Shown here in pieces: positions 3,780 to 57,487 of a DNA stretch of 64,000 nt. Below the pieces are notes generated by a model. It saw only the letters and a list, made by a program, of their open reading frames with translations, searched no databases and had not been told where the DNA came from. This DNA is from Bacteroidota bacterium (GTDB taxonomy: Bacteria; Bacteroidota; Bacteroidia; NORP154), in the NCBI GenBank assembly GCA_043811005.1, contig JBDRNO010000094.1, positions 319-64,318 on the forward strand. Direction: 5' to 3'. Numbering within the stretch: the stretch's first letter is position 1; each line of letters starts with the position of its first letter. The translations under genes and the position numbers were made by a program.

Positions 3780-5408
3780 ATGAAACAAAATAAAAAAATT
3801 GTTCTGCTGATTATGGACGGATGGGGGTGCGGTGATAAGACCAGATCTGACGCTATAGCAAATGCCAATACCCCCTTTTTTGACAGCTTAATTAAAAAAT
3901 ATCCAAACACCCGGCTCTTTGCTCATGGTGAATATGTGGGCTTGCCACATGGACAAATGGGCAACTCGGAGGTAGGTCATTTAAACATCGGTGGGGGAAG
4001 AATAGTTTACCAGGATCTGGTAAAAATAAACAAAGCTATAGAAGATAAAAGCATTGATTCCAACCCGGTTTTGATAAAGGCATTCAATTATGCAAAAGAA
4101 AAAGGGAAGAATGTTCATTTCCTGGGGCTTGTGTCTGATGGCGGTGTGCATTCCTCGCAGGAGCATCTTCACAAACTTTGCACTATGTGTAAGGATAATG
4201 GATTAAGCAATGTATATATTCATGCCTTTATGGATGGCAGGGATACCGATCCTAAGAGCGGTTTGGGCTTCATCTCCAGATTAGAAGACCACCTCTCCCC
4301 CGGCCCCTCTCCGAACATCCCCCTTGCACCCTTCAAAGAAGGGGGACTGGAGAGGGGAGACCCGGCGCGCAGGCACTCCCTTCTACCAACTGGCAGAGAG
4401 GGCAAGGGAGGGATGATCGCTTCTATAATTGGCAGGTACTATGCTATGGATAGAGATAAAAGATGGGAAAGAATAAAAGTGGCTTACAACATGCTGGTTA
4501 AAGGTGTTGGAGAAAAAACCACAGATGTTTTAATTGCCATTAAAAAATCATACGATACGGGAATTACCGATGAGTTTATAAAACCAATAGTGAGAGTAGA
4601 CGAATATAATAATCCGGTTGGAAGAATTGAGGAAGGCGATGTGGTCATTTGCTTCAACTTTCGCAACGACAGGTGCAGGGAGATAACGCAAGTATTAACC
4701 CAAATGGATTTCCCAGAGAACAAAATGCAAAAAATGAACTTGCATTACAATACCATGACCAATTATGACATTACTTTTAAAGGTATTAACGTTGTTTTTG
4801 AGAAGGAAGATGTTAAGATGACCATAGGGGAAGTACTGTCTAAAGCCGGTAAAAAACAGATAAGAATTGCCGAAACCGAAAAGTATGCTCATGTTACTTT
4901 TTTCTTTTCAGGTGGCAGGGAAGAACCTTTTAAAGGAGAAAAGCGGATACTTATCCCATCACCAAAAGTCGCAACTTATGATCTGAAACCCGAAATGAGC
5001 GCTTATAAAGTAACTGATGCCATCACAAAAGAGCTGAAAGAAGCAGAAACCGATTTTATCTGCCTGAACTTTGCCAACACTGACATGGTTGGGCATACGG
5101 GCTTTTATGAAGCAGTTGTAAAAGCGGTTGAAACAGTTGATACCTGTATAAAAAAGGTAGTGGAAGAAGGCCTTCAGAATGGTTATTCATTTATTATTAT
5201 TGCCGATCACGGCAATGCAGATTATATGATCAATGATGACGGCTCTGAGAATACAGCGCATAGTAACAATCCCGTTCCATGTATCTTGATTGATGAAGAT
5301 TATAAAGATATTAAAGAGGGTATACTGGCTGATGTAGCTCCCACAATCCTGACATTGATGGGAATGGAGGTTCCCGGGGAGATGACTGGGGAGGTTTTGA
5401 TTAGTTAG
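3780..5408 (+). CDS. gpmI: 2,3-bisphosphoglycerate-independent phosphoglycerate mutase carrying an in-frame inserted element
   Basis: MDGWG..., [33 protein letters not shown] and ADHGNA are hallmark iPGM motifs. At 542 aa it is about 30-35 aa longer than usual because of the block at 4292-4408. Confidence 0.93.
4292..4408 (-). repeat. GC-rich nested palindromic element, in frame inside gpmI
   Basis: Inverted repeats cccctctcc/ggagagggg, ccccctt/aaggggg and ctccctt/aagggag. The reverse complement begins GGTCTCCCCTCTCC, like the copies at 18656 and 53586. Confidence 0.75.
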
Positions 5409-47683: not shown

Positions 47684-48694
47684 TTGAGACCCCGTTACAA
47701 TAAATTATACTTTTTACCCCGTCATTTGTTAGGGCTTATTTTTTTTGCTTTTTTCTTTACTTCCTGCAGCACCAATAACAACCCCGTATTGCCTGCCATT
47801 ACCGGTAAGGCGGGAGAGATAATTGTAGTTATTGAAAAAAAAAATTGGGACTCTAACGTTGGCAAACAAATAAAAGCTTGCCTGGCTCAACAACACATAG
47901 CTTTACCCCAGCCCGAACCGGTTTTTACCTTAGTTAATATTCCAAACAAGTCCTTTACAGGGCTTTTAAAATCCCACCGTAACATATTGATAATTAATAT
48001 TTCCCGGAACGAAAAGCCATCTGTTATTGTTAAAAAAGATGTATGGTCAACCCCGCAATTGGTAGTTAAAATAACTGCTTCAAATAAAGATGAGCTTGTT
48101 GATTTGATAAATAAAAACAAAGGATCATTAGTCAATTATTACATTAATATTGAAAAAAAGCGGTTAATGTCGAAATACGCTAAAATTGAAGAAAAGAGCA
48201 TTACAAAAAAACTCATAAAAGATCATCAGTTATCGCTGACAGTGCCAAAGACTTATGAAATTGCCAAAGAGCATGAAAAATTTATCTGGATAAGAAGAGA
48301 AACAAATGAGACGAGCCATGGAATTTTGATATATTATTATGACTATGTAGACTCTAATACTTTTACAAGGGCATATATTCTGTCTGCCAGGGATTCAATC
48401 ACGAAGCGATATATACCAGGACCTACAACAGGTTCTTATATGTCTACAATGCGTGATTATCCTGCAGCCATAAAAAAGATGGATTTTAAAGGCATGTATG
48501 CTATTGAGACGAGAGGATTGTGGAACGTACATGGCGATTTTATGGGAGGGCCTTTTTTAAACTACACCATACTTGACGAGCAGAGAAACAGGGTAGTAAC
48601 AGTTGAAGGATATGTTTATGCCCCGAAATTCGATAAGAGAAATTACCTGCGGCAGGTGGAAGCGATATTATGTTCGTTGAAGATTCATTCTTAA
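47684..48694 (+). CDS. DUF4837 family lipoprotein
   Basis: Lipobox FFTSCS. Collinear with the DUF4837 pattern I recall (..W....G..I.......LPQ.EP.F.......F.......RN......, KF.WIRR, IPGP..GSYM, GLW.V...FMGGPF.NY...D...NR.V.VEG.V.AP...KR.Y....EAI). It uses a TTG start. Confidence 0.75.
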   Translation: MRPRYNKLYFLPRHLLGLIFFAFFFTSCSTNNNPVLPAITGKAGEIIVVIEKKNWDSNVGKQIKACLAQQHIALPQPEPVFTLVNIPNKSFTGLLKSHRNILIINISRNEKPSVIVKKDVWSTPQLVVKITASNKDELVDLINKNKGSLVNYYINIEKKRLMSKYAKIEEKSITKKLIKDHQLSLTVPKTYEIAKEHEKFIWIRRETNETSHGILIYYYDYVDSNTFTRAYILSARDSITKRYIPGPTTGSYMSTMRDYPAAIKKMDFKGMYAIETRGLWNVHGDFMGGPFLNYTILDEQRNRVVTVEGYVYAPKFDKRNYLRQVEAILCSLKIHS

Positions 48695-48774
48695 TAAACG
48701 ATTTTAAAGGTTGGCGATATATACCTGTATTCATCATCTGTTCTTTAGGAAAATTCGCTTAATTCAAAAGGCAA

Positions 48775-48975
48775 ATTCCTCATTTCGTTCCGCTGCGCTC
48801 CACTAAATTCGGAATGACAGCGTTTTTGAGAGAAACGTGGAGGGAGAGCGGTTGCGGGAACATAGAGCCGCTGCATACAACGTCTATACATTCCTGTTCC
48901 CGCACCCGCTCTCCCTCTTTACAAAAAAAATCACTGTCATTCCGATCCGCCAGCTGGCGGAGGAGTGAGGAATCT
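48775..48975. repeat. 200-bp nested palindrome built from two REP-like units around a 23-bp-stem hairpin
   Basis: attcctca (48775-48782) / tgaggaat (48966-48973). cggaatgacag (48810-48820) / ctgtcattccg (48934-48944). gagggagagcggttgcgggaaca / tgttcccgcacccgctctccctc has one mismatch in 23. The right unit contains CCGCCAGCTGGCGG. Confidence 0.75.
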
Positions 48976-49210
48976 ACCGGTAATGAAATACAATTTTTTA
49001 TATTAATCTGGCGAAAAGAACACCACTAAGAAAACATTACCCCGAAATAGTGCTATTTAGTTCAGTTTTGGAGTAAAACTCGCCGGGAACACTTGCCAAT
49101 AAAGGGGTTTAATTTAGCGAATATATCTCTTTAAGAGGCGATGATCTACCAAATATTTTTCTTCTTTAAATCAAAATTCACAATATTATTTACTAAAGCA
49201 TACATTACTA

Positions 49211-50611
49211 AGCCAACTATATTTTTCGCACCTGTCTTTCTCAACAAATTGGAAAAATAAAGCAAATCATTACATTACGAGTAGTATAATTTATGGTGAT
49301 GGAACAAACATTGGTATTGGCACAAATGATCCTTATGCAAAATTAGATATTGAAAGTTCCGGAACCGATGGAATTGATATAAATATCTCAGAAGGAGAAG
49401 GAGGAGACCCGAGAATAAAATTTCAACTTTCAGGAAATACAAAATTTACAATGGGTGTAGATGATTCAGATGATGATAAATTTAAAATAGGGACTTCTGC
49501 AATTTCAACGACTCCCCGGATGACTATTGATGGTTCCGGGTATGTTGGGATTGGAACAGAAGATCCCGGGACACAATTAGAAGTTAATTCTGGCGGTGCT
49601 GATGTTGCCCCAATTTTTGCAATTTCTACACCCAGTGCTGCTGATTTTGTTTCAATTTTTGGTGGAAGAAACTCTAATCAACTTCCATTTATAGCGTGGA
49701 GAAGAGGATCGTTTAGGTTTGCAACTGCTACGACTTTTGGAGGTGGCACATTTTCTGAAAAGATGAGAATAACTGAAAGCGGTGATGTTGGGATTGGGAC
49801 GGCTAGCCCTTCCTATCAGTTGCAATTAAGCCAGAATAGTGCAGCAAAACCTGGTTCAGATTTGTGGACAATAGCATCAGATATAACTTTAAAACAAGAC
49901 ACATCCTTGTTTACTGATGGGTTGAGCTTATTAAAGCAATTTCGCCCAATACGATTCAGATATAATGGACTTGGATACTTACCTACTGACTAATATTTTG
50001 TAGGTGTGATTGCTCAAGAAGTCCGAAATTACGCCCCATATATGATCGATACTACAACTATAGTGACAGATACTGCCAACAATCAAACAGTGGACATTCT
50101 TAGCTATAATGCTCATGCTTTAAAGTACATCATAATTAATGCAATTAAAGAATTAGATTGTAAATTTGATAGTGTTACCATTGCCAATGATTCATTATTA
50201 TTAGTTGTGTCTAGTTTTGAAAGCAGAATAACGGATATCGAAACCGCTTTACCGGCATGTTGTGATTCGTCATATTTCAAATCGAATAATCGGTTATCTA
50301 ATAATGAAGAAGAAGGAAATTATAGGAATGCTATTATAAATAGTAAGAAAAATGCTGTCTTGCATCAAACCCAACCCAATCCTTTCGATCAAAACACAAC
50401 TATCAGGTATTTCATACCGAAAGAGGCAACAACTGCTTCTGTTATTATTTACGACTTGCAGGGCAGGCAAATAAAGCAGTTCAGCTCTCTGGAAAGGGGA
50501 GAGGGAAGCGTAACGGTAAATGGTGGAGAGCTATACCCGGGCATATTCATATACGCCATGATAGTTGATGGTGAGGAAATTACTACAAAAAGAATGATCC
50601 TTACAAAATAA
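49211..50611 (+). pseudogene. Tail-fibre-like protein with a peptidase S74-type chaperone domain and a T9SS type A tail; lacks a start codon and carries an in-frame TAA
   Basis: The frame is open from 49211 with no ATG before 49451. Repeats read GDGTNIGIGTNDPYAKLDI / GYVGIGTEDPGTQLEV / GDVGIGTASPSYQLQL. An in-frame TAA lies at 49991-49993 within ...RFRYNGLGYLPTD*YFVGVIAQEV.... The C-terminus reads NPFDQNTTIRYFIP...IIYDLQGRQI. Confidence 0.6.
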
Positions 50612-50647
50612 AAATCAGATAAAATATGAATACGCATTTTCAACGCA

Positions 50648-50673
50648 AAAGCCCCGAATTTCCGGGGCTTTTT
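50648..50673 (+). terminator. Rho-independent terminator
   Basis: aaagccccg-aattt-ccggggcttt followed by ttttg, 37 nt after the stop at 50611. Confidence 0.7.
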
Positions 50674-50758
50674 GTATATATTTGACACAGTTTACCGGTA
50701 ATTCCTAACTTTCAAAGTCAATTTACGTATAAATCTTTGAAGCTCAACAGATCATAAA

Positions 50759-52732
50759 ATGCTAAGATATTTAGTCCTATTGCTACTTTTATTTGGCATG
50801 AACATCTTTGTGCCAATAAGTTATGCCCAAAAACAAGGTAATATCTGGTATTTCGGAGATGGTGCAGGATTGGATTTTAACAGCGGGGTTCCTGTTGCAT
50901 TAACTGATGGACAAACCTACTTTGCAGATTTCCATAATGAAGGTACTGCCGTAATATCAGACAGTTCCGGCTCCCTGTTGTTTTACAGCAACGGGGAAAA
51001 AGTGTGGAACCGGTATCACCAGGTTATGCCAAATGGAAACGGTTTGTTGGGACATCTTTCTTCAACACACGCTGCCTTTATTGTACCGAAACCCGGGAGT
51101 GAGATATTGTTCTATCTTTTTACTTCAGATTCTTATTATCAAAATGATTTAAAGAACGGTTTTAGATATTCGATAATCAATATGTGTTTGGATAATGGGC
51201 AGGGTGACATTGTTCCTGGAACCAAAAATATACTCTTATTGGATACTGTTGCAGAAAAAATTTCAGCTATAAAACATGCTAACAATATTGATTATTGGGT
51301 TATTACTCATAAATATTTTTCTGATGCCTTTTATGCTTTTTTATTGACAAGCAATGGGATTGAAGATACAGTTATTACGTATATTGGGTCTGTACATGAG
51401 GAAAATTGTATTCCTCCTAGTCCTAACTTAACAAGAGCTGCAATAGGACAAATTAAAGCTTCTCCTGATGGAACGAAACTGGCATTAGTCAATACCAATA
51501 CTTGCACGAATATTTCAGAATTGTTTGATTTTGACAAATCAACAGGAATTGTTTCCAACATTATTGATTTAAATACAAATGATGAAGGATGGTATGGTCT
51601 TACTTTTTCACCTGATAACACGAAGCTATATAAAACACACCTTTCTGAGACCAGAATCATTTATCAGTATGATCTTTCCGCAGGAGGAGGACATCCTGAT
51701 TCAATAATAAATTCTGAGAACTTAATTTCATTTATGTCTACAGGTGGTGTAGGTGCTGCGCATAGCCTGCAAATCGGTCCCGATGGAAAAATATATGTTG
51801 CTCGAGGGGATAAGAATTTTATAGCAGTAATCAATAATCCCAATTTTTATGGTGCAGCATGCAATTTTGAGGACAGTGCGGTTTATTTAAACGGCAAAAT
51901 ATGTTCGTATGGCTTGCCCAATTTTATTGACAATTATGATTATTCTAGCACAGGGGTTACTTTACCCCCCATAGCAAACATTACAGGACCTGCATCGATC
52001 TGTTCAGGAGACAGTGTGGAACTGATATCCGGTATCGCTGCCTCTTATGTATGGCTATTTAATGGCTTGCCCATAATACCTGGAACAACACAGACTATTA
52101 TTGCATCATCAGCCGGGGATTACCAGGTAGCAGCAATAAACGATTGCGGAGCGGATACATCGGCTATAAAAACGATAACCGTAGATCCTTTGCCTGATGC
52201 AGATGCCGGTAATGACACTGCTATTATTTCAGGAAGCAGTGTTCAATTGTCCGGCTCTGGGGGCATAGTATATTCATGGAGCCCATCAGCAGGTTTGAGC
52301 GATCCCAATATTTCCAACCCTTTAGCATCCCCAACAGAAACAACTATTTACTACCTTACTGTTACAGATACAAATGAATGTTCAGATACGGATTCGGTAA
52401 TTATCACGGTCATGGATTCCGTAATTATCCCGGTTCCTGATGAATTGGATATATTCATACCTGATATTTTTTCACCCAACGGGGATGGAGAAAATGATGT
52501 TTTATATGTTTATGGTAAAGCGATAGAAAACATATTATTTGTTGTGTATGACAGGTGGGGAGAGAAAGTTTATGAGGCAAAGGAAGTTACAAACGGACAG
52601 GATGGTGAGGTCATCGCGGGATGGAACGGCACTTTCGATAACAAACCACTGGACCCTGCTGTTTTTGTATATTATCTTGAGGTAAATGATGGGGCGATAA
52701 TTAAAAAGGGGAATATTACCCTGATACGCTGA
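50759..52732 (+). CDS. T9SS type B (gliding-motility CTD) surface protein with an N-terminal propeller-like domain
   Basis: Signal peptide, then GNIWYFGDGAGLDFNSG. The C-terminus reads IPDIFSPNGDGENDVLYVYG...YDRWGEKVYE...GWNGTF....LDPAVFVYYLEV...GNITLIR. Confidence 0.85.
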   Translation: MLRYLVLLLLLFGMNIFVPISYAQKQGNIWYFGDGAGLDFNSGVPVALTDGQTYFADFHNEGTAVISDSSGSLLFYSNGEKVWNRYHQVMPNGNGLLGHLSSTHAAFIVPKPGSEILFYLFTSDSYYQNDLKNGFRYSIINMCLDNGQGDIVPGTKNILLLDTVAEKISAIKHANNIDYWVITHKYFSDAFYAFLLTSNGIEDTVITYIGSVHEENCIPPSPNLTRAAIGQIKASPDGTKLALVNTNTCTNISELFDFDKSTGIVSNIIDLNTNDEGWYGLTFSPDNTKLYKTHLSETRIIYQYDLSAGGGHPDSIINSENLISFMSTGGVGAAHSLQIGPDGKIYVARGDKNFIAVINNPNFYGAACNFEDSAVYLNGKICSYGLPNFIDNYDYSSTGVTLPPIANITGPASICSGDSVELISGIAASYVWLFNGLPIIPGTTQTIIASSAGDYQVAAINDCGADTSAIKTITVDPLPDADAGNDTAIISGSSVQLSGSGGIVYSWSPSAGLSDPNISNPLASPTETTIYYLTVTDTNECSDTDSVIITVMDSVIIPVPDELDIFIPDIFSPNGDGENDVLYVYGKAIENILFVVYDRWGEKVYEAKEVTNGQDGEVIAGWNGTFDNKPLDPAVFVYYLEVNDGAIIKKGNITLIR

Positions 52733-52819
52733 AGCTACTCCCAGTACTCGTGGTGGAATCTCCACTACTGCTGAGTGCAGCTCATCGGAATTTGTGCGGG
52801 GGCATCCCAGCGGGGTAAC

Positions 52820-53137
52820 TTATGCCACTGTAGATTCTTCCTGAATAGATTTTAGCATTTCATGCTTAATAAATCCTCGTAAGCTCAAATCTTCATCAAG
52901 CTTAGACCAATGAATACCTGTTCTGCTAATTTCATAGTTATTTAATAATTCTTCAGAGGTATTATTCAACCGTTTGAACTCTGACAGGTTCCTTTTTATT
53001 ACCTTTTTATTATTAAGCAAAATGATCATCAAATCCATATCCTTATAAAAATATGCTGCTTTAATCCTCAAACCATCCTCCAGAATCATTTTATCGATTT
53101 CATCCAGGTTCCACCTATTATTTTTCAAAGTACTCAT
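52820..53137 (-). CDS. DUF2442 domain protein
   Basis: 105 aa. ...NYEISRTGIHWSKLDEDLSLRGF matches the DUF2442 C-terminal signature (G.GIHWP.LDEDIS..GL). It overlaps the upstream DUF4160 gene by 20 nt. Confidence 0.7.
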   Translation of the reverse strand: MSTLKNNRWNLDEIDKMILEDGLRIKAAYFYKDMDLMIILLNNKKVIKRNLSEFKRLNNTSEELLNNYEISRTGIHWSKLDEDLSLRGFIKHEMLKSIQEESTVA

Positions 53138-53357
53138 TCCATTTAGATATTAAAAATTCATGGTTTTCTTTTATTATTTTCATTATTTGTGCTTCCTCTT
53201 GTGATTTAAAGTCGAAGTAATACTCTGGTTTGGGTTCTGGCAGCAACCAAATTTTTGCATCACCTTTTCCTTTTTTTACGTGAACATGAGGCGGTTCGTT
53301 TCTATCAGATGAAAAAAAGAAAAATCTAAATCCTTTTATAGATAGCACTGTTGGCAT
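53118..53357 (-). CDS. DUF4160 domain protein
   Basis: 79 aa. MPTVLSIKGFRFFFFSSDRNEPPHVHVKKG matches the DUF4160 N-terminal signature (MP.I....G......Y..DH.PPH.H). Confidence 0.7.
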   Translation of the reverse strand: MPTVLSIKGFRFFFFSSDRNEPPHVHVKKGKGDAKIWLLPEPKPEYYFDFKSQEEAQIMKIIKENHEFLISKWNEYFEK

Positions 53358-53585
53358 AGAACTGCAAATTTAACGAATTTTTGTTTCTTAAGGTTTCATT
53401 ATTTCTCTTAATGCTGAAAAAATTAATTTTTGTTCATTCATGCTTCCAGTGCTATTAGTGAAGTAATGTCTTGGGGCATAATATTTATCTAAAATTGGAC
53501 CGTAAATATACGAAAAGATGTTATAATACCTACCCTTCAAAGAACCATTTTCCAGCGGAAACCACAGATGATGTGTTGCGTGCTG

Positions 53586-53622
53586 GGTCTCCCTCTCCCT
53601 TCGGGGAGGATCGGGGTGGGGC
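53586..53622 (+). repeat. Short copy of the GGTCTCCCTCTCC...GGGGAGGATCGGGGTGGGGC element
   Basis: GGTCTCCCTCTCCcttcGGGGAGGATCGGGGTGGGGC has the same head and tail as 18656-18724. It sits exactly at the breakpoint of the orphan gene fragment. Confidence 0.7.
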
Positions 53623-53629
53623 GGCTCTT

Positions 53630-53727
53630 CCTTCCACAAACCCCTGGACCCTGCTGTGTTTGTATATTATCTTGAGGTAAATGATGGGGATAGAATGAAA
53701 AAGGGGAATATTACACTGGTACGCTGA
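53630..53727 (+). pseudogene. Orphan 3' fragment duplicating the C-terminal end of the 50759-52732 T9SS gene
   Basis: About 97 nt parallel 52631-52732. A 46-nt core (ctggaccctgctgt.tttgtatattatcttgaggtaaatgatgggg) has one mismatch. It translates to ..FHKPLDPAVFVYYLEVNDGDRMKKGNITLVR*. There is no start, and an upstream in-frame stop lies at 53569-53571. Confidence 0.75.
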
Positions 53728-53806
53728 CCGCGTTCGCATAAAGCTTTAGCGGTTGCGAAAGCTGCAGGGTAAACTTTGGTAAGATAAACTTCCAATTTAA
53801 ACAACT

Positions 53807-56800
53807 CTACAACCGCCCACCAAGCACACAAGTCTCCTTGTATTTCTCAATATTTCCATCCAAATCAAAAACCTCGAAGAAGATAATATATATCCCCATC
53901 CTGGCTTTTTCGTTATTTTCATTTATCCCATCCCACGAGAAAGTTCCCTCATCAGTGCCTAATAATTCATTTTGCACAAGATATTTTGCAGGCCTTCCCT
54001 TTGAATCATATATGGTAATATTTGCTACAAATCCCGGGGAATCAAATTTATAGCTGATATTAACAACATCATTGAAGCCATCATTATCGGGTGAGAAGAT
54101 CTCAGGGTCAATGGTTATTGGTTCATCTGTAACCCCGGAAGTGTTAAACTGGGAATTTTTGTAACCGGGAGTTGCAAAACCAATAACTTCAGCCGCTGAA
54201 TGCCAGTTGGTAGCATCATTGGTGAGTCTGTTAAAACCCAGTCTCTCTAAGGAGACACCACCTTTATCGTTTAATAATGCAAAATGCATATCCTCATCAT
54301 AAGTAAAACTGTCGGAAACTTCAAGTAAATTATTTAATAATATCACGGTTCCGTCACCATCATTGTAGCTTGGCAAGGCGTCAATTTCAACAAAGGTTTC
54401 TTCATTGCCCAAAGGGTATTCATCTTTAATATTTGCTCCGTCTTGTGTGAGTACGGCATATTCTTCCGGAAAGAGAACATAGGGAGTTTGGATAATCGGT
54501 TTAATGTTGGCAATAGTGTTGGCTTCAATATTTGCTAATTTCCAGTTACTAATGTCAATGTATCTGCCTGAATTATTGTAAACCTCAACAAAGTCAGAGC
54601 CGCCTGTTCTGGGATTAAATAATACTTCATTTATAATAATATCCTGTGGCAGCCCTTGTTCGGGCAAAGCAAAATCGGCAGAATTACCGGTTCCAATCAG
54701 GTTGCCAACGCAATCATTAATGCCGGTAACTGTAACCGTATAAACGATGCCTTCTACAATGGGAGTGGAAAGGAGCAGCAGAACAGTTTTGTTATCCTGG
54801 CAAATAATGGAATCAATGCCAATTCCTTTTGTAATCGTAAAGGATGCTGATAAAACGCTTGAACTGTCAATAATTTCGTCAAAAGTAAGTATGACCTGAA
54901 CAGGATCGGCTGCATCTGCCCTTAGAAGAACGGGATTTAGATTATCAGGGTTGGGGGCATCAACAGAATTTTGCTGCCCGGGTGTTCCTCCCTTTGCATC
55001 AACTGATGCCCGCCAGTTGCTTCCTTCCCCGCATGGATTGCCGGGGTCTATCATTTCCAGTGACCAGCCCCCATCTTCTTTGTTGTTATCTCCATACCAG
55101 CTAATAGAATAATTAACCGAATGTATCACATTTCCCTGGTTGTCATATATGCTTAGCAGCTCTCCATCATTGGTTAAAGAGGGGAAAGAAGCCAGCGGCA
55201 GGACCGCTCCAAACTGTTCAAATTCAGAGGCGGCATCCTCATCGCATAAAATAATATAATCACCGGACAGTAAAATGTGTGGATCCAATGAATTTGGAGA
55301 GCCCTCATCGGCAAATTGCCATTCCCTAAGGTCAAATGCTTTGTTACTGTTATTGTATAATTCCACAAATTCATATTCCGGCAAACCTACAACAGGCGAA
55401 GGGTCAGGAAATATCTCGCTGATCACCACATCATATTTATCTGCCGGTAATGAAATTACAAACCGGGCTGTATTATTCGAACTTACCAGGTTACCTGCAC
55501 AATCAGTGATGCTGTCTGCCGTAATAGTGTAAACTGTCCCGGCATCAATTGTGGGGCTCAATACCAGGATGCATGAAGTAAAATCGCTTGGATCAACGAT
55601 AACCGAAACAACGTTTAATCCGTTATTCACAAAGTAAGAACCTGTTATCAATCCTGAACTGTCCATAAGTTCGGAGAAGTTAAGGATCACTTGCGATGAG
55701 TCAATGGCATAGGCGCTCAAGAGATCTGGAGATTGTGTATCAGGTGTAGTGTCATGAACCGAATTTTTAAATCCGGGAGTTCCGCCACCCGGATTGATCG
55801 AAGCCGTCCAGTTGTTTGAACCGCTACAGATCGCTAAAGGATTAATTAATTCAAGAGACCATCCGCCTTCATCCTTGTCCGGGTCATTATACCATTGATC
55901 CGTGTAATTGACGCGATCCACCATGGTAGCCACATCATTTTTTAAAGACATATTATCACCTGAATTATTAAGTGTCGGCCATGTTGAAAGTCCGATAACA
56001 GCCCCATAAGGACTAAAGCTTGCAGTATCTGCAACCGGACAAAGGATTACATAATCACCGGAGAGTAAAAAGAAGGTTGATAAAATGCCTGTGGAACTAC
56101 CATCTGAAAATTCCCAGCCATTTAAATCAAATGCCTTATTGCCTGTGTTAAAAAGCTCAATATACTCAATCTCTGGCAGCCCGACCTGAGGGCTTGGATC
56201 GGCAAAGATCTCATTGATCACCACATCTTTATACAAGGCGGTATCGGGCACAAAATACATAAACTGAACATTTGTAGGTGATATAATGGAATCCCCGGAA
56301 AGATTTTCAACATTTGAAATGGATAAGGTATTTGTAACACCACTTTGAAATGCTATCGAAAAAGTTAAATGAACGAAACTGGAATCCGTACCATCCCTGA
56401 CTGCATTCGAAGAATTGCCAATACCATTGTCTACAGAGTAATTGGTGGTGGTTTCTGCTGTTGTTTGTTCTACCACTTCAGAAAATTGGATATCTATTGT
56501 TGTATCAGAAAGTACTGATATAGATAAAATTGTGGGAGGTACAATATAAAAGGTAAAATCTTCAGTTGCTGTGATAATGGTATTCCCGCTACGGTCTTCC
56601 ACATTATTGACAGTTAGGGTGTTTTGAAGTCCATCCGTGAAACTGATCGTAAAAGTTAAGTGAACTAAGCTGGAGTCCGTACCATCTCTCACGGCAGAAT
56701 AAGGATTCCCAATGCCATTATTAACTGAATAGTTGGTAAGCGTTTCTGCTGTTGTTTTTTTCACTACCTCAGAAAACTGCACATCAAGTGTTGTGTCGGA

Positions 56801-57487
56801 TAATACCAGGACAGTATCAATTGAAGGAGGAATTGTGTCGGGAATGATAGTGCCTACATAAAAATCATCAAAATAAAACTTGTCTGACCGGGTTGAAGTA
56901 TAGTCACAAAAGACACCGGAAAAATTTGATAGTGTATGGGTGTTGTCAAACACCGTGCCTTCGGAAAAATAATTTGTTCCTCCCAGTATATCGGAAAAAA
57001 GCTGCCAGTTACCGGCAGTATCACGGATAACTTTTACCCTAACGGTAACAGGAGAATAATCTACCCTGTCATCAACGCCATCAATAATTTCAGTTTCTGT
57101 CGCTCCAGTTTTTTCATAAAGAGATATCTCATCGGTAGTATTTCCGATCTTTACAAAATATCCATTCAGAGGACCATTCAGATTTGCCGTATCAGAAACC
57201 AAAAATATATTGGCATAATTAGCGCTTGAAGGGTTGAAATCCAACATTACATAAAAGGCCCATTCAGTACTGTCTATCGAAGTACTTGGTGTGCTCAAAT
57301 ACGCCACATCATCAACAGCCGGAGCATTAAGATGTAACTGGTATGACAGGTCAACCTCAAATTTAGAGTTATCCCCGCTCCAGGCAGGATTATTGGTAAA
57401 ATCCCCATCAGAAAAATCATCGGTGAGTTGTGCTGAAACACAAATGGGAAAGAGATAAATAAAAAATATTATTAATAATTTTTTCAT
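53807..57487 (-). CDS. Large secreted protein with three lamin-tail (LTD) domains and Ig-like repeats
   Basis: Signal peptide. There are three LTD-like modules (VINEIFADPSPQVGLPEIEYIELFNTGNKAFDLNGW, VISEIFPDPSPVVGLPEYEFVELYNNSNKAFDLREW, IINEVLFNPRTGGSDFVEVYNNSGRYIDISNW). The C-terminus reads EIFSPDNDGFNDV... Confidence 0.75.
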   Translation of the reverse strand: MKKLLIIFFIYLFPICVSAQLTDDFSDGDFTNNPAWSGDNSKFEVDLSYQLHLNAPAVDDVAYLSTPSTSIDSTEWAFYVMLDFNPSSANYANIFLVSDTANLNGPLNGYFVKIGNTTDEISLYEKTGATETEIIDGVDDRVDYSPVTVRVKVIRDTAGNWQLFSDILGGTNYFSEGTVFDNTHTLSNFSGVFCDYTSTRSDKFYFDDFYVGTIIPDTIPPSIDTVLVLSDTTLDVQFSEVVKKTTAETLTNYSVNNGIGNPYSAVRDGTDSSLVHLTFTISFTDGLQNTLTVNNVEDRSGNTIITATEDFTFYIVPPTILSISVLSDTTIDIQFSEVVEQTTAETTTNYSVDNGIGNSSNAVRDGTDSSFVHLTFSIAFQSGVTNTLSISNVENLSGDSIISPTNVQFMYFVPDTALYKDVVINEIFADPSPQVGLPEIEYIELFNTGNKAFDLNGWEFSDGSSTGILSTFFLLSGDYVILCPVADTASFSPYGAVIGLSTWPTLNNSGDNMSLKNDVATMVDRVNYTDQWYNDPDKDEGGWSLELINPLAICSGSNNWTASINPGGGTPGFKNSVHDTTPDTQSPDLLSAYAIDSSQVILNFSELMDSSGLITGSYFVNNGLNVVSVIVDPSDFTSCILVLSPTIDAGTVYTITADSITDCAGNLVSSNNTARFVISLPADKYDVVISEIFPDPSPVVGLPEYEFVELYNNSNKAFDLREWQFADEGSPNSLDPHILLSGDYIILCDEDAASEFEQFGAVLPLASFPSLTNDGELLSIYDNQGNVIHSVNYSISWYGDNNKEDGGWSLEMIDPGNPCGEGSNWRASVDAKGGTPGQQNSVDAPNPDNLNPVLLRADAADPVQVILTFDEIIDSSSVLSASFTITKGIGIDSIICQDNKTVLLLLSTPIVEGIVYTVTVTGINDCVGNLIGTGNSADFALPEQGLPQDIIINEVLFNPRTGGSDFVEVYNNSGRYIDISNWKLANIEANTIANIKPIIQTPYVLFPEEYAVLTQDGANIKDEYPLGNEETFVEIDALPSYNDGDGTVILLNNLLEVSDSFTYDEDMHFALLNDKGGVSLERLGFNRLTNDATNWHSAAEVIGFATPGYKNSQFNTSGVTDEPITIDPEIFSPDNDGFNDVVNISYKFDSPGFVANITIYDSKGRPAKYLVQNELLGTDEGTFSWDGINENNEKARMGIYIIFFEVFDLDGNIEKYKETCVLGGRL

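Follow-up and report, generated by a model that had tools for sequence, protein, structure and literature searches.

A putative DhiTA-like toxin-antitoxin pair between two copies of a CHU_C gene end in a Bacteroidota genome, and its possible arrival by insertion with long target duplication

The stretch of DNA described here, hereafter the window, comprises 64,000 nucleotides of a Bacteroidota bacterium (assembly GCA_043811005.1, contig JBDRNO010000094.1, positions 319 to 64,318) and is numbered from its first letter. It contains an intact gene for a cargo protein of the type IX secretion system (T9SS) with a C-terminal CHU_C domain, whose last 28 codons occur a second time on the same strand downstream. 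The two copies are separated by a 905-nt insert, which is composed of a DUF4160/DUF2442 gene pair related to known toxin-antitoxin (TA) systems, the remnant of an ORF6N-domain gene and one copy of a GC-rich repeat. On balance, this arrangement is best explained by an insertion with long target duplication, probably the product of one homologous crossover and one microhomology join that was subsequently stabilised by the toxin.

A direct-repeat search of the window returned a 116-nt repeat with 85% identity (52617-52732 versus 53612-53727), and BLAST against the whole genome recovered the same pair with E = 6e-31. Alignment confines the clearly gene-derived portion to 84 nt (52649-52732 versus 53644-53727), with seven mismatches and 91.7% identity, which translate as ..LDPAVFVYYLEVNDGDRMKKGNITLVR followed by the stop codon. 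The gene-end repeat recorded in an earlier note on this DNA is thus real, and its copies are the most similar pair among the ends of the approximately 70 CHU_C genes of the genome; they differ from each other at 7 positions, compared with 13-19 differences to three other members of the subfamily (77-85% identity), and they share derived bases. The same note had counted 53612-53643 as part of the repeat, but this segment belongs to the GC-rich element, and a gene origin of the GW.G match that it contains was rejected, the sequence being the GC-rich repeat family's own tail. The flanking direct repeats span 84-98 nt at an offset of 995 nt, well beyond the >30 bp by which a long target duplication is defined. 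Their homology ends at the stop codon, or 6 nt after it (AGCTAC in one copy and AGCTGC in the other) when a mini-repeat at 53728-53759 is ignored. Six of the seven mismatches are clustered in the final 38 of the 84 nt (p = 0.03), and the first 46 nt form a near-perfect core.

Copy 2 has no reading frame upstream and is the sole orphan CHU_C fragment in the genome; it is functionless. The 3' flank of native type stops 6 nt past the intact gene and resumes only past copy 2, and both edges of the insert are also edges of the duplicated segment. The insertion had originally been placed inside the coding sequence, a position that has to be corrected, as the insert starts 6 nt past the stop codon.

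The gene pair between the copies lies on the opposite strand, and Pfam confirms its assignment to DUF4160 and DUF2442, with the two genes overlapping by 20 nt. The pair can no longer be called uncharacterised, since DUF4160/DUF2442 is the validated type II system DhiTA of Dickeya dadantii 3937, in which the toxin gene also comes first (PMC8198452), and a DUF4160/DUF2442 module of a Thermus thermophilus plasmid raises plasmid persistence, its first gene not being introducible into Thermus without the second (PMC12724237). The window toxin scores 26.1 bits against the NCBIfam model toxin_DhiT (NF048015), below the equivalog cut-off of 100 bits, and judged by its sequence it is a distant member of the DhiT family and not an ortholog. 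Both genes are full length, and ratios of non-synonymous to synonymous substitution rates (dN/dS) of 0.08-0.12 against the closest relatives place them under purifying selection. The closest DUF2442 relatives are 74-78% identical and of equal length. At the DNA level the closest relatives of the pair are 78-79% identical, yet this similarity is confined to 52833-53381 and all flanks differ. The view of the insert as one cassette, and of the 905 nt as one mobile unit, was abandoned on these grounds, as the closest relatives share only the two genes.

The insert is therefore a mosaic, and neither its open reading frames nor Pfam searches revealed a mobility gene or integrase, in agreement with the earlier note. 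Upstream of the toxin gene lies an ORF6N gene that has suffered an internal deletion of about 400 nt. Its two remaining parts are 91% identical to C298:2572-2692 and 77% identical to C298:3074-3148, where contig C298 of the same genome carries an intact counterpart (PF10543 ORF6N, 8e-28) followed by a different, ParE-type TA pair. The GC-rich sequence (GGTCTCCCTCTCC...) occurs once in the window but belongs to a family for which BLAST returned more than 30 hits, spread across about 25 contigs and frequently located at their ends. The right end of the family consensus, ..CTTCCTTCCACAAC(C)CC, terminates at approximately 53645 directly against the gene fragment, and the consensus tail (..TTCCACAACCCC..) enters this fragment via a 10-nt microhomology, ACAAACCCCT as opposed to ACAAACCACT in the gene. 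The earlier placement of a GC-rich element at the breakpoint is in line with this boundary, and the element is probably just the site of a microhomology join and not, as had been suggested, the mediator of an exchange between paralogs. Its predicted folding is not better than that of shuffled sequence (z = 0.25), and no RNA family of Rfam was detected in 52600-53900.

Indirect support for insertion comes from related cassettes. Antitoxin (DUF2442) relatives were collected at 79 loci in species-representative genomes, 71 of which were usable, and 600 nt on each side of the module were compared. Flanking direct repeats were found at 15 of the 71 loci (approximately 21%); they measure 37-198 nt with 78-96% identity, lie no more than 350 nt from the module and are spaced 640-1060 nt apart. 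Three controls gave 0.8-1.8%, with hits at 7 of 400 randomly chosen positions of this genome, itself rich in repeats, at 2 of 212 positions within unrelated loci of Bacteroidota, and in 3 of 368 units the size of a gene; the survey differs from each of them with p of at most 1e-8. At L109, which is a further case, the repeat measures 84 nt with 88% identity. The same architecture is present in chromosome-level assemblies of other Bacteroidota. The sequence of the flanking repeat is specific to each locus, and when nine repeats were checked against their own genomes seven had copies at that locus alone. Several are the ends of neighbouring genes, including the 3' ends of gcvP, of a MacB/FtsX permease gene and of a PreA-like dehydrogenase gene, as well as the 5' end of a GT4 glycosyltransferase gene. 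Integron attC sites or repeats borne by the element itself were rejected as an explanation, as the repeats derive from neighbouring genes and change from locus to locus; palindromic attC repeats and a nearby IntI, the marks of an integron, were not seen, although no dedicated IntI search was made.

Two of these sites have been found empty. In genome G060 the left neighbour and the gcvP end are only about 170-180 nt apart, and it is at this position that L124 carries an extra 204-nt gcvP end together with the TA pair. The orphan in L124 retains the native-like end (..IEEYAQP before the stop) and the intact gcvP now ends in ..MESYS. The GT4 site (L137) is empty in G085 and G075, while G079 is intermediate and has a VapBC cassette only. 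In G043 both a DhiTA and a VapBC cassette are present, separated by three copies of the 5' end of the GT4 gene. The copy that is contiguous with the gene extends about 25 nt further into native flank than does the one located behind the cassette, which suggests that the cassette came in together with one copy through homologous recombination, in which case the duplicated piece may have acted as a homology arm. A comparison for L135 yielded no clean empty site, its left neighbour being different. Arrays of TA cassettes split by copies of one gene end were seen twice, at L137:1901-3836 (G043; DhiTA and VapBC) and at L185:781-3016 (G044; RelE-like and DhiTA), and relatives of such arrays show empty and one-cassette states.

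The anatomy of the locus, the intactness of the TA genes, the mosaic make-up of the insert and the return of this layout around related cassettes are established observations. It is proposed from them that a block of about 0.9 kb, consisting of a DhiTA-type operon, its ORF6N-type upstream gene and the GC-rich repeat, entered 6 nt past the CHU_C stop codon, and that about 90-95 nt of the target came to flank it on either side. The incoming DNA would have paired with the 3' end of the gene and undergone a homologous crossover there, and its far end would have been attached by illegitimate recombination at the microhomology ACAAACC(A/C)CT, some 90 nt upstream of the end of homology. The concentration of six of the seven mismatches towards the stop codon would be expected if copy 1 had received its tail from the donor through a crossover close to position 46. 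The gene would thereby have kept a complete end, and the native end with its flank would have been pushed downstream as an orphan. Such an insertion would ordinarily be excised by recombination between the copies, but loss of the cassette would also deprive the cell of the labile antitoxin and poison it, which may be how the structure persisted while the copies diverged to 92%. The ORF6N gene presumably decayed later, while the TA genes stayed intact.

Several observations weigh against this reading. The clustering of mismatches reaches only p = 0.03. Because CHU_C 3' ends constitute a conserved multigene family, part of the similarity between the copies will reflect family constraint. Flanking repeats are absent from 79% of the 71 related loci, the junctions at the empty sites are not clean (offsets of 12-45 nt), and a second DUF4160/DUF2442 pair of the same genome, on contig C175, has no visible gene-end duplication. 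Neither an empty site nor same-species sequence for the window locus was found in the collections searched. The idea of a cassette at a gene 3' end, as put forward in the earlier note, is thus upheld by the 15 of 71 loci, the gene-end repeats, the two empty sites and the closeness of the window copies, but insertion is unproven at the window locus itself and is argued there by analogy with the related cassettes.

As the main alternative, the orphan could be what is left of a deleted tandem paralog, in which case a recent CHU_C duplicate once lay downstream, the TA block came to lie between the two genes, and a deletion from the GC-rich repeat to about codon 629 of the second gene spared only the last 28 codons. 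Many of the approximately 70 CHU_C genes are indeed arranged in tandem clusters and the island in which the locus lies is decaying, as seen from the internal deletion in the ORF6N gene and an in-frame stop in a T9SS gene. The ACAAACC microhomology suits a deletion junction equally well, and repeats of the BoxC/triplex type have been tied to local deletions and sequence variability (PMC4666352). This history, however, takes three events, duplication, insertion exactly 6 nt past a stop codon and deletion, where a target-duplicating insertion takes one. True tandem CHU_C neighbours are moreover just 29-71% identical over the same 84 nt, as against 91.7% for the window copies, and the duplicated ends of single-copy housekeeping genes around related cassettes would be left unexplained. 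A deleted paralog is accordingly regarded as unlikely.

It is less likely still that the locus is a decayed site-specific element, of the kind found as e14 in icd or as a cis-mobilisable element (CIME), which brought a replacement gene end and then lost its integrase and most of its cargo by deletion, the TA pair surviving between attL and attR. The near-perfect 46-nt core followed by a tail that is diverged up to the stop codon does resemble carried gene ends, and ORF6N domains are a typical feature of regulators in phages and conjugative elements. On a short metagenome contig (L089) the TA pair's closest relative directly follows a tyrosine recombinase gene, and the arrays at L137 and L185 look as if elements had accumulated at a single attachment site. 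Nevertheless, there is no integrase in the insert, and tblastn found no homolog of the L089 enzyme in this genome. Repeats that differ from locus to locus and range from 37 to 198 nt are unlike the work of one recombinase with one site, and most repeat-flanked units measure 0.64-1.06 kb, which would be an improbable end point for independent decay to share. An assembly artefact, finally, is very improbable. The genome consists of 310 contigs and is 83% complete, and a metagenome assembler could have joined strain variants or paralog ends through a shared exact block, but this block is just 31 nt long, the copies stand in direct order on one 66-kb contig with differences at 7 positions, and the same architecture is found in the chromosome-level assemblies mentioned above.

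The insertion with long target duplication, which remains the preferred explanation, is set within a larger lineage-specific island (Table 1). A DUF4837 homolog and a lamin-tail-domain (LTD) gene are convergent and 0-173 nt apart in four loci of three family relatives (G001, G003 twice and G006), and 48695-53806 is considered lineage-specific because these two genes nearly adjoin in the relatives. The left edge of the island (48741-49131) is made of multi-copy palindromic repeats with copies of 78-93% identity on more than 10 contigs, and the neighbouring T9SS gene with the in-frame stop also belongs to it. The genome has no close relative in the collections searched: exact look-ups of the CHU_C protein and of the toxin gave no match, a metagenome scan gave N-terminal homologs (at most 58% identity), a search of 5.8 billion proteins had a best hit of 65%, and among the 40 nearest genomes, which are all of other genera, the best match reached 52%.

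Table 1 Features of the locus (window coordinates)
Feature	Position	Strand	Description	Evidence
T9SS cargo gene	50759-52732	+	Intact, 657 aa, C-terminal CHU_C	PF13585 3.8e-14; TIGR04131 1.3e-11 (T9SS type B sorting domain)
Repeat copy 1	52641-52738	+	Continuous with the gene: microhomology ACAAACCACT, last 28 codons, stop codon, AGCTAC	Alignments
Spacer	52739-52819		81 nt	52780-52820 resembles short repeat on contig C16
DUF2442 gene	52820-53137	-	Putative DhiA-like antitoxin, 105 aa, intact	PF10387 2.2e-10; dN/dS 0.09-0.12
DUF4160 gene	53118-53357	-	Putative DhiT-like toxin, 79 aa, first in operon	PF13711 4.7e-17, residues 9-74; dN/dS 0.08-0.10
ORF6N-domain gene remnant	53365-53555	-	Promoter region and first 13 codons (53435-53555) fused to last ~17 codons (53365-53438)	
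Dispersed GC-rich repeat	53524-53645	+	One copy; core 53592-53622 BoxC/triplex-motif-like	
Junction microhomology	53636-53645	+	10 nt; ACAAACCCCT in repeat end, ACAAACCACT in gene at 52641-52650	
Repeat copy 2	53644-53727	+	Orphan last 28 codons and stop codon	
32-nt mini-repeat	53728-53759	+	Between stop codon and AGCTGC	Three genomic copies, one at same position after C182 CHU_C gene
Family-typical 3' flank	53760-53806	+	AGCTGCAGGGTAAAC..., reaches stop codon of LTD gene	Motif follows 8 CHU_C genes
Lineage-specific island	48695-53806		5.1 kb	Between conserved DUF4837 gene (47684-48694) and LTD gene (53807-57487)

The product of the cargo gene is a domain chimera, in which the N-terminal 400 aa are joined to an immunoglobulin-like region and the type B domain. 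For this N-terminal part most database homologs, at 60-65% identity, have a sorting domain of type A (PF18962), and the C-terminal 260 residues share 70% identity with two further genes of the same genome. There is no PorP/SprF-like gene directly downstream, whereas the paralog on contig C182 has one (PF11751, 6e-43). Such a cognate downstream gene is common but not obligatory for the type B class of cargo.

The ends of the CHU_C genes are themselves patterned. Eight of them end in ..ACCCTGATACGCT(A/G)A, after which follows AGCTACAGGGTAAAC..., with sites at 52712-52738 and 53707-53774 in the window and at C278:6153, C205:20121, C285:1169, C169:16781, C172:16192, C49:4283 and C17:6145. This end motif may be read either as a hairpin that spans the stop codon (TTACCCTG/CAGGGTAA) or as a degraded tandem duplicate of the gene's final approximately 25 nt. 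The 32-nt unit CCGCGTTCGCATAAAGCTTTAGCGGTTGCGAA has three copies (window 53728-53759, C182:1966-1997 and C137:25368-25399), is always located between ACGCTGA and AGCT, and resembles two more worn copies of an end motif of about 16 nt.

The second DUF4160/DUF2442 pair of the genome (C175:19868-20428) is 52% and 38% identical to the window pair and sits between genes that are named from their sequences as a putative acyl-CoA thioesterase and a putative glycosyltransferase. A search for the cassette at further gene 3' ends of this genome found none. Targeting of CHU_C ends by the cassette was likewise rejected, as the window holds the sole orphan among about 70 genes and the C175 pair is found at unrelated genes. 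The arrangement in L089 was recorded at L089:2-412, with the TA pair 43 nt downstream of the tyrosine recombinase gene (Phage_integrase, 2e-09).

Further repeats were noted in the genome. The intact ORF6N gene and the ParE-type TA pair of contig C298 (L002; C298:1072-4192) are flanked by direct repeat copies of 72 and 35 nt with 89-94% identity, located at L002:986-1103 and L002:2724-2986; these are apparently dispersed, a similar sequence being present at C298:~4800-4940. Upstream of the same ORF6N gene there is a BoxC-like pair together with five tandem 24-mers. The GC-rich repeat is a composite that consists of a leader (..TTCAAAGAACCATTTTCCAGC), optional tandem 24-mers (ACTTCGGTAAAACTCAGTACAAGC), GGATG..GATGATGTGTTG, the BoxC-like core and the tail CTTCC..TTCCA.AAC. 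It occurs in about 30 further places, for example at C75:26018, C215:5269, C301:47612 and C299:3153-3339, and the leader motif alone gives 67 hits on 47 contigs. A sequence of about 42 nt (GCTCATCGGAATTTGTGCGGGGGCATCCCAGCGGGGTAAC) is present twice in the genome with 86% identity, at 52780-52820 in the window and at C16:1279-1320.

Taken alone the window is of modest interest, as it holds a scar in a decaying lineage-specific island next to a secreted-protein gene that is intact; the pattern that recurs across a TA family is more interesting. It can be speculated, although this goes further than the explanation given for the window and is doubtful, that TA cassettes of the Bacteroidota (DhiTA, VapBC and RelE-like) behave as "duplication-locked" mobile units that need no enzyme of their own. 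Such units would enter by a crossover and an illegitimate join that duplicates 40-200 nt, addiction would block their removal, and the orphan copy would serve as a second homology arm for spread by double crossover into naive relatives and for stacking. Under such a model ordinary recombination would account for the insertion, addiction for the retention of an otherwise unstable product, and the duplicated piece for help with homologous spread. The movement of chromosomal TA pairs without a transposase or integrase is poorly understood, and the recurrent locus-specific duplications offer a testable model for it. If it is true, the long target duplication of Kobayashi would be extended from restriction-modification (RM) to TA systems, with addiction and not DNA cutting as the shared cause.

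The individual parts of the locus are reminiscent of known systems to different degrees. The BoxC, PIT and TM_ECO intrastrand triplex motifs of E. coli sit in unusually variable DNA, and TM_ECO comprises a 9-nt C-rich block, a loop of 3-6 nt and two 9-nt G-rich blocks (GGGNGAGGG) 3 nt apart (Holder et al. 2015, PMC4666352, Table 1). The core of the window repeat, CCCTCTCCC-TTC-GGGGAGGAT-CG-GGGTGGGG, broadly follows this order of blocks, and the window family too is dispersed and located in variable DNA. Its C-rich block and loop fit the motif, but the first G-rich block (GGGGAGGAT) is degenerate and the spacer deviates, and the window family has an additional conserved leader (..CCAGCGGATG..GATGATGTGTTG..) and a tail that are absent from the E. 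coli motif. The gene pair agrees with DhiTA and the Thermus module in consisting of small overlapping genes with DUF4160 first and DUF2442 second. Unlike them it is assigned from sequence and is only a distant relative.

The arrangement of the gene ends resembles that of e14 and phage 21 in icd and of the CIMEs at the 3' end of fda in Streptococcus thermophilus, where the insert leaves the gene intact, with its 3' end duplicated and the orphaned end on the insert's far side. The window gene is also intact, with its 3' end duplicated and the orphan end beyond the insert. Those elements, however, rely or formerly relied on a tyrosine recombinase of their own and a fixed attachment site, whereas the window has no integrase and the related cassettes have different targets. 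The proposed mechanism in turn is akin to homology-facilitated illegitimate recombination, a process associated with work of de Vries & Wackernagel and of Prudhomme et al. from 2002, in which a homologous anchor and a join at a short GC-rich microhomology reportedly import foreign DNA that is itself without homology. One homologous anchor and one microhomology join are likewise proposed for the window. The described events usually delete DNA of the recipient, whereas the window is read as a duplication, and the mechanism is applied to this organism by analogy.

The closest parallel is provided by the RM addiction modules, for which long target duplication was described (2000, Gene 259:99; Furuta, Abe & Kobayashi 2010, PMC2853133). 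RM inserts have no mobility gene and lie between direct repeats, tens to hundreds of bp long, which match a single target sequence in insert-free genomes; the authors suspected breakage of DNA by the restriction enzyme to be the cause that such inserts share (PMC2853133). In a later review that treats RM and TA systems, long target duplication comes up for RM only (PMC3874152), and in a limited search of the literature no description of it for TA pairs was found. The window differs from the RM cases in that its module is a protein TA pair and in that an empty site is seen for related cassettes and not for the window. It shares with them an addiction module without a mobility gene and flanking direct repeats whose length varies by locus. 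DhiTA has no known DNA-cutting activity, and therefore the same layout points to addiction, and not to breakage, as what the two kinds of module have in common.

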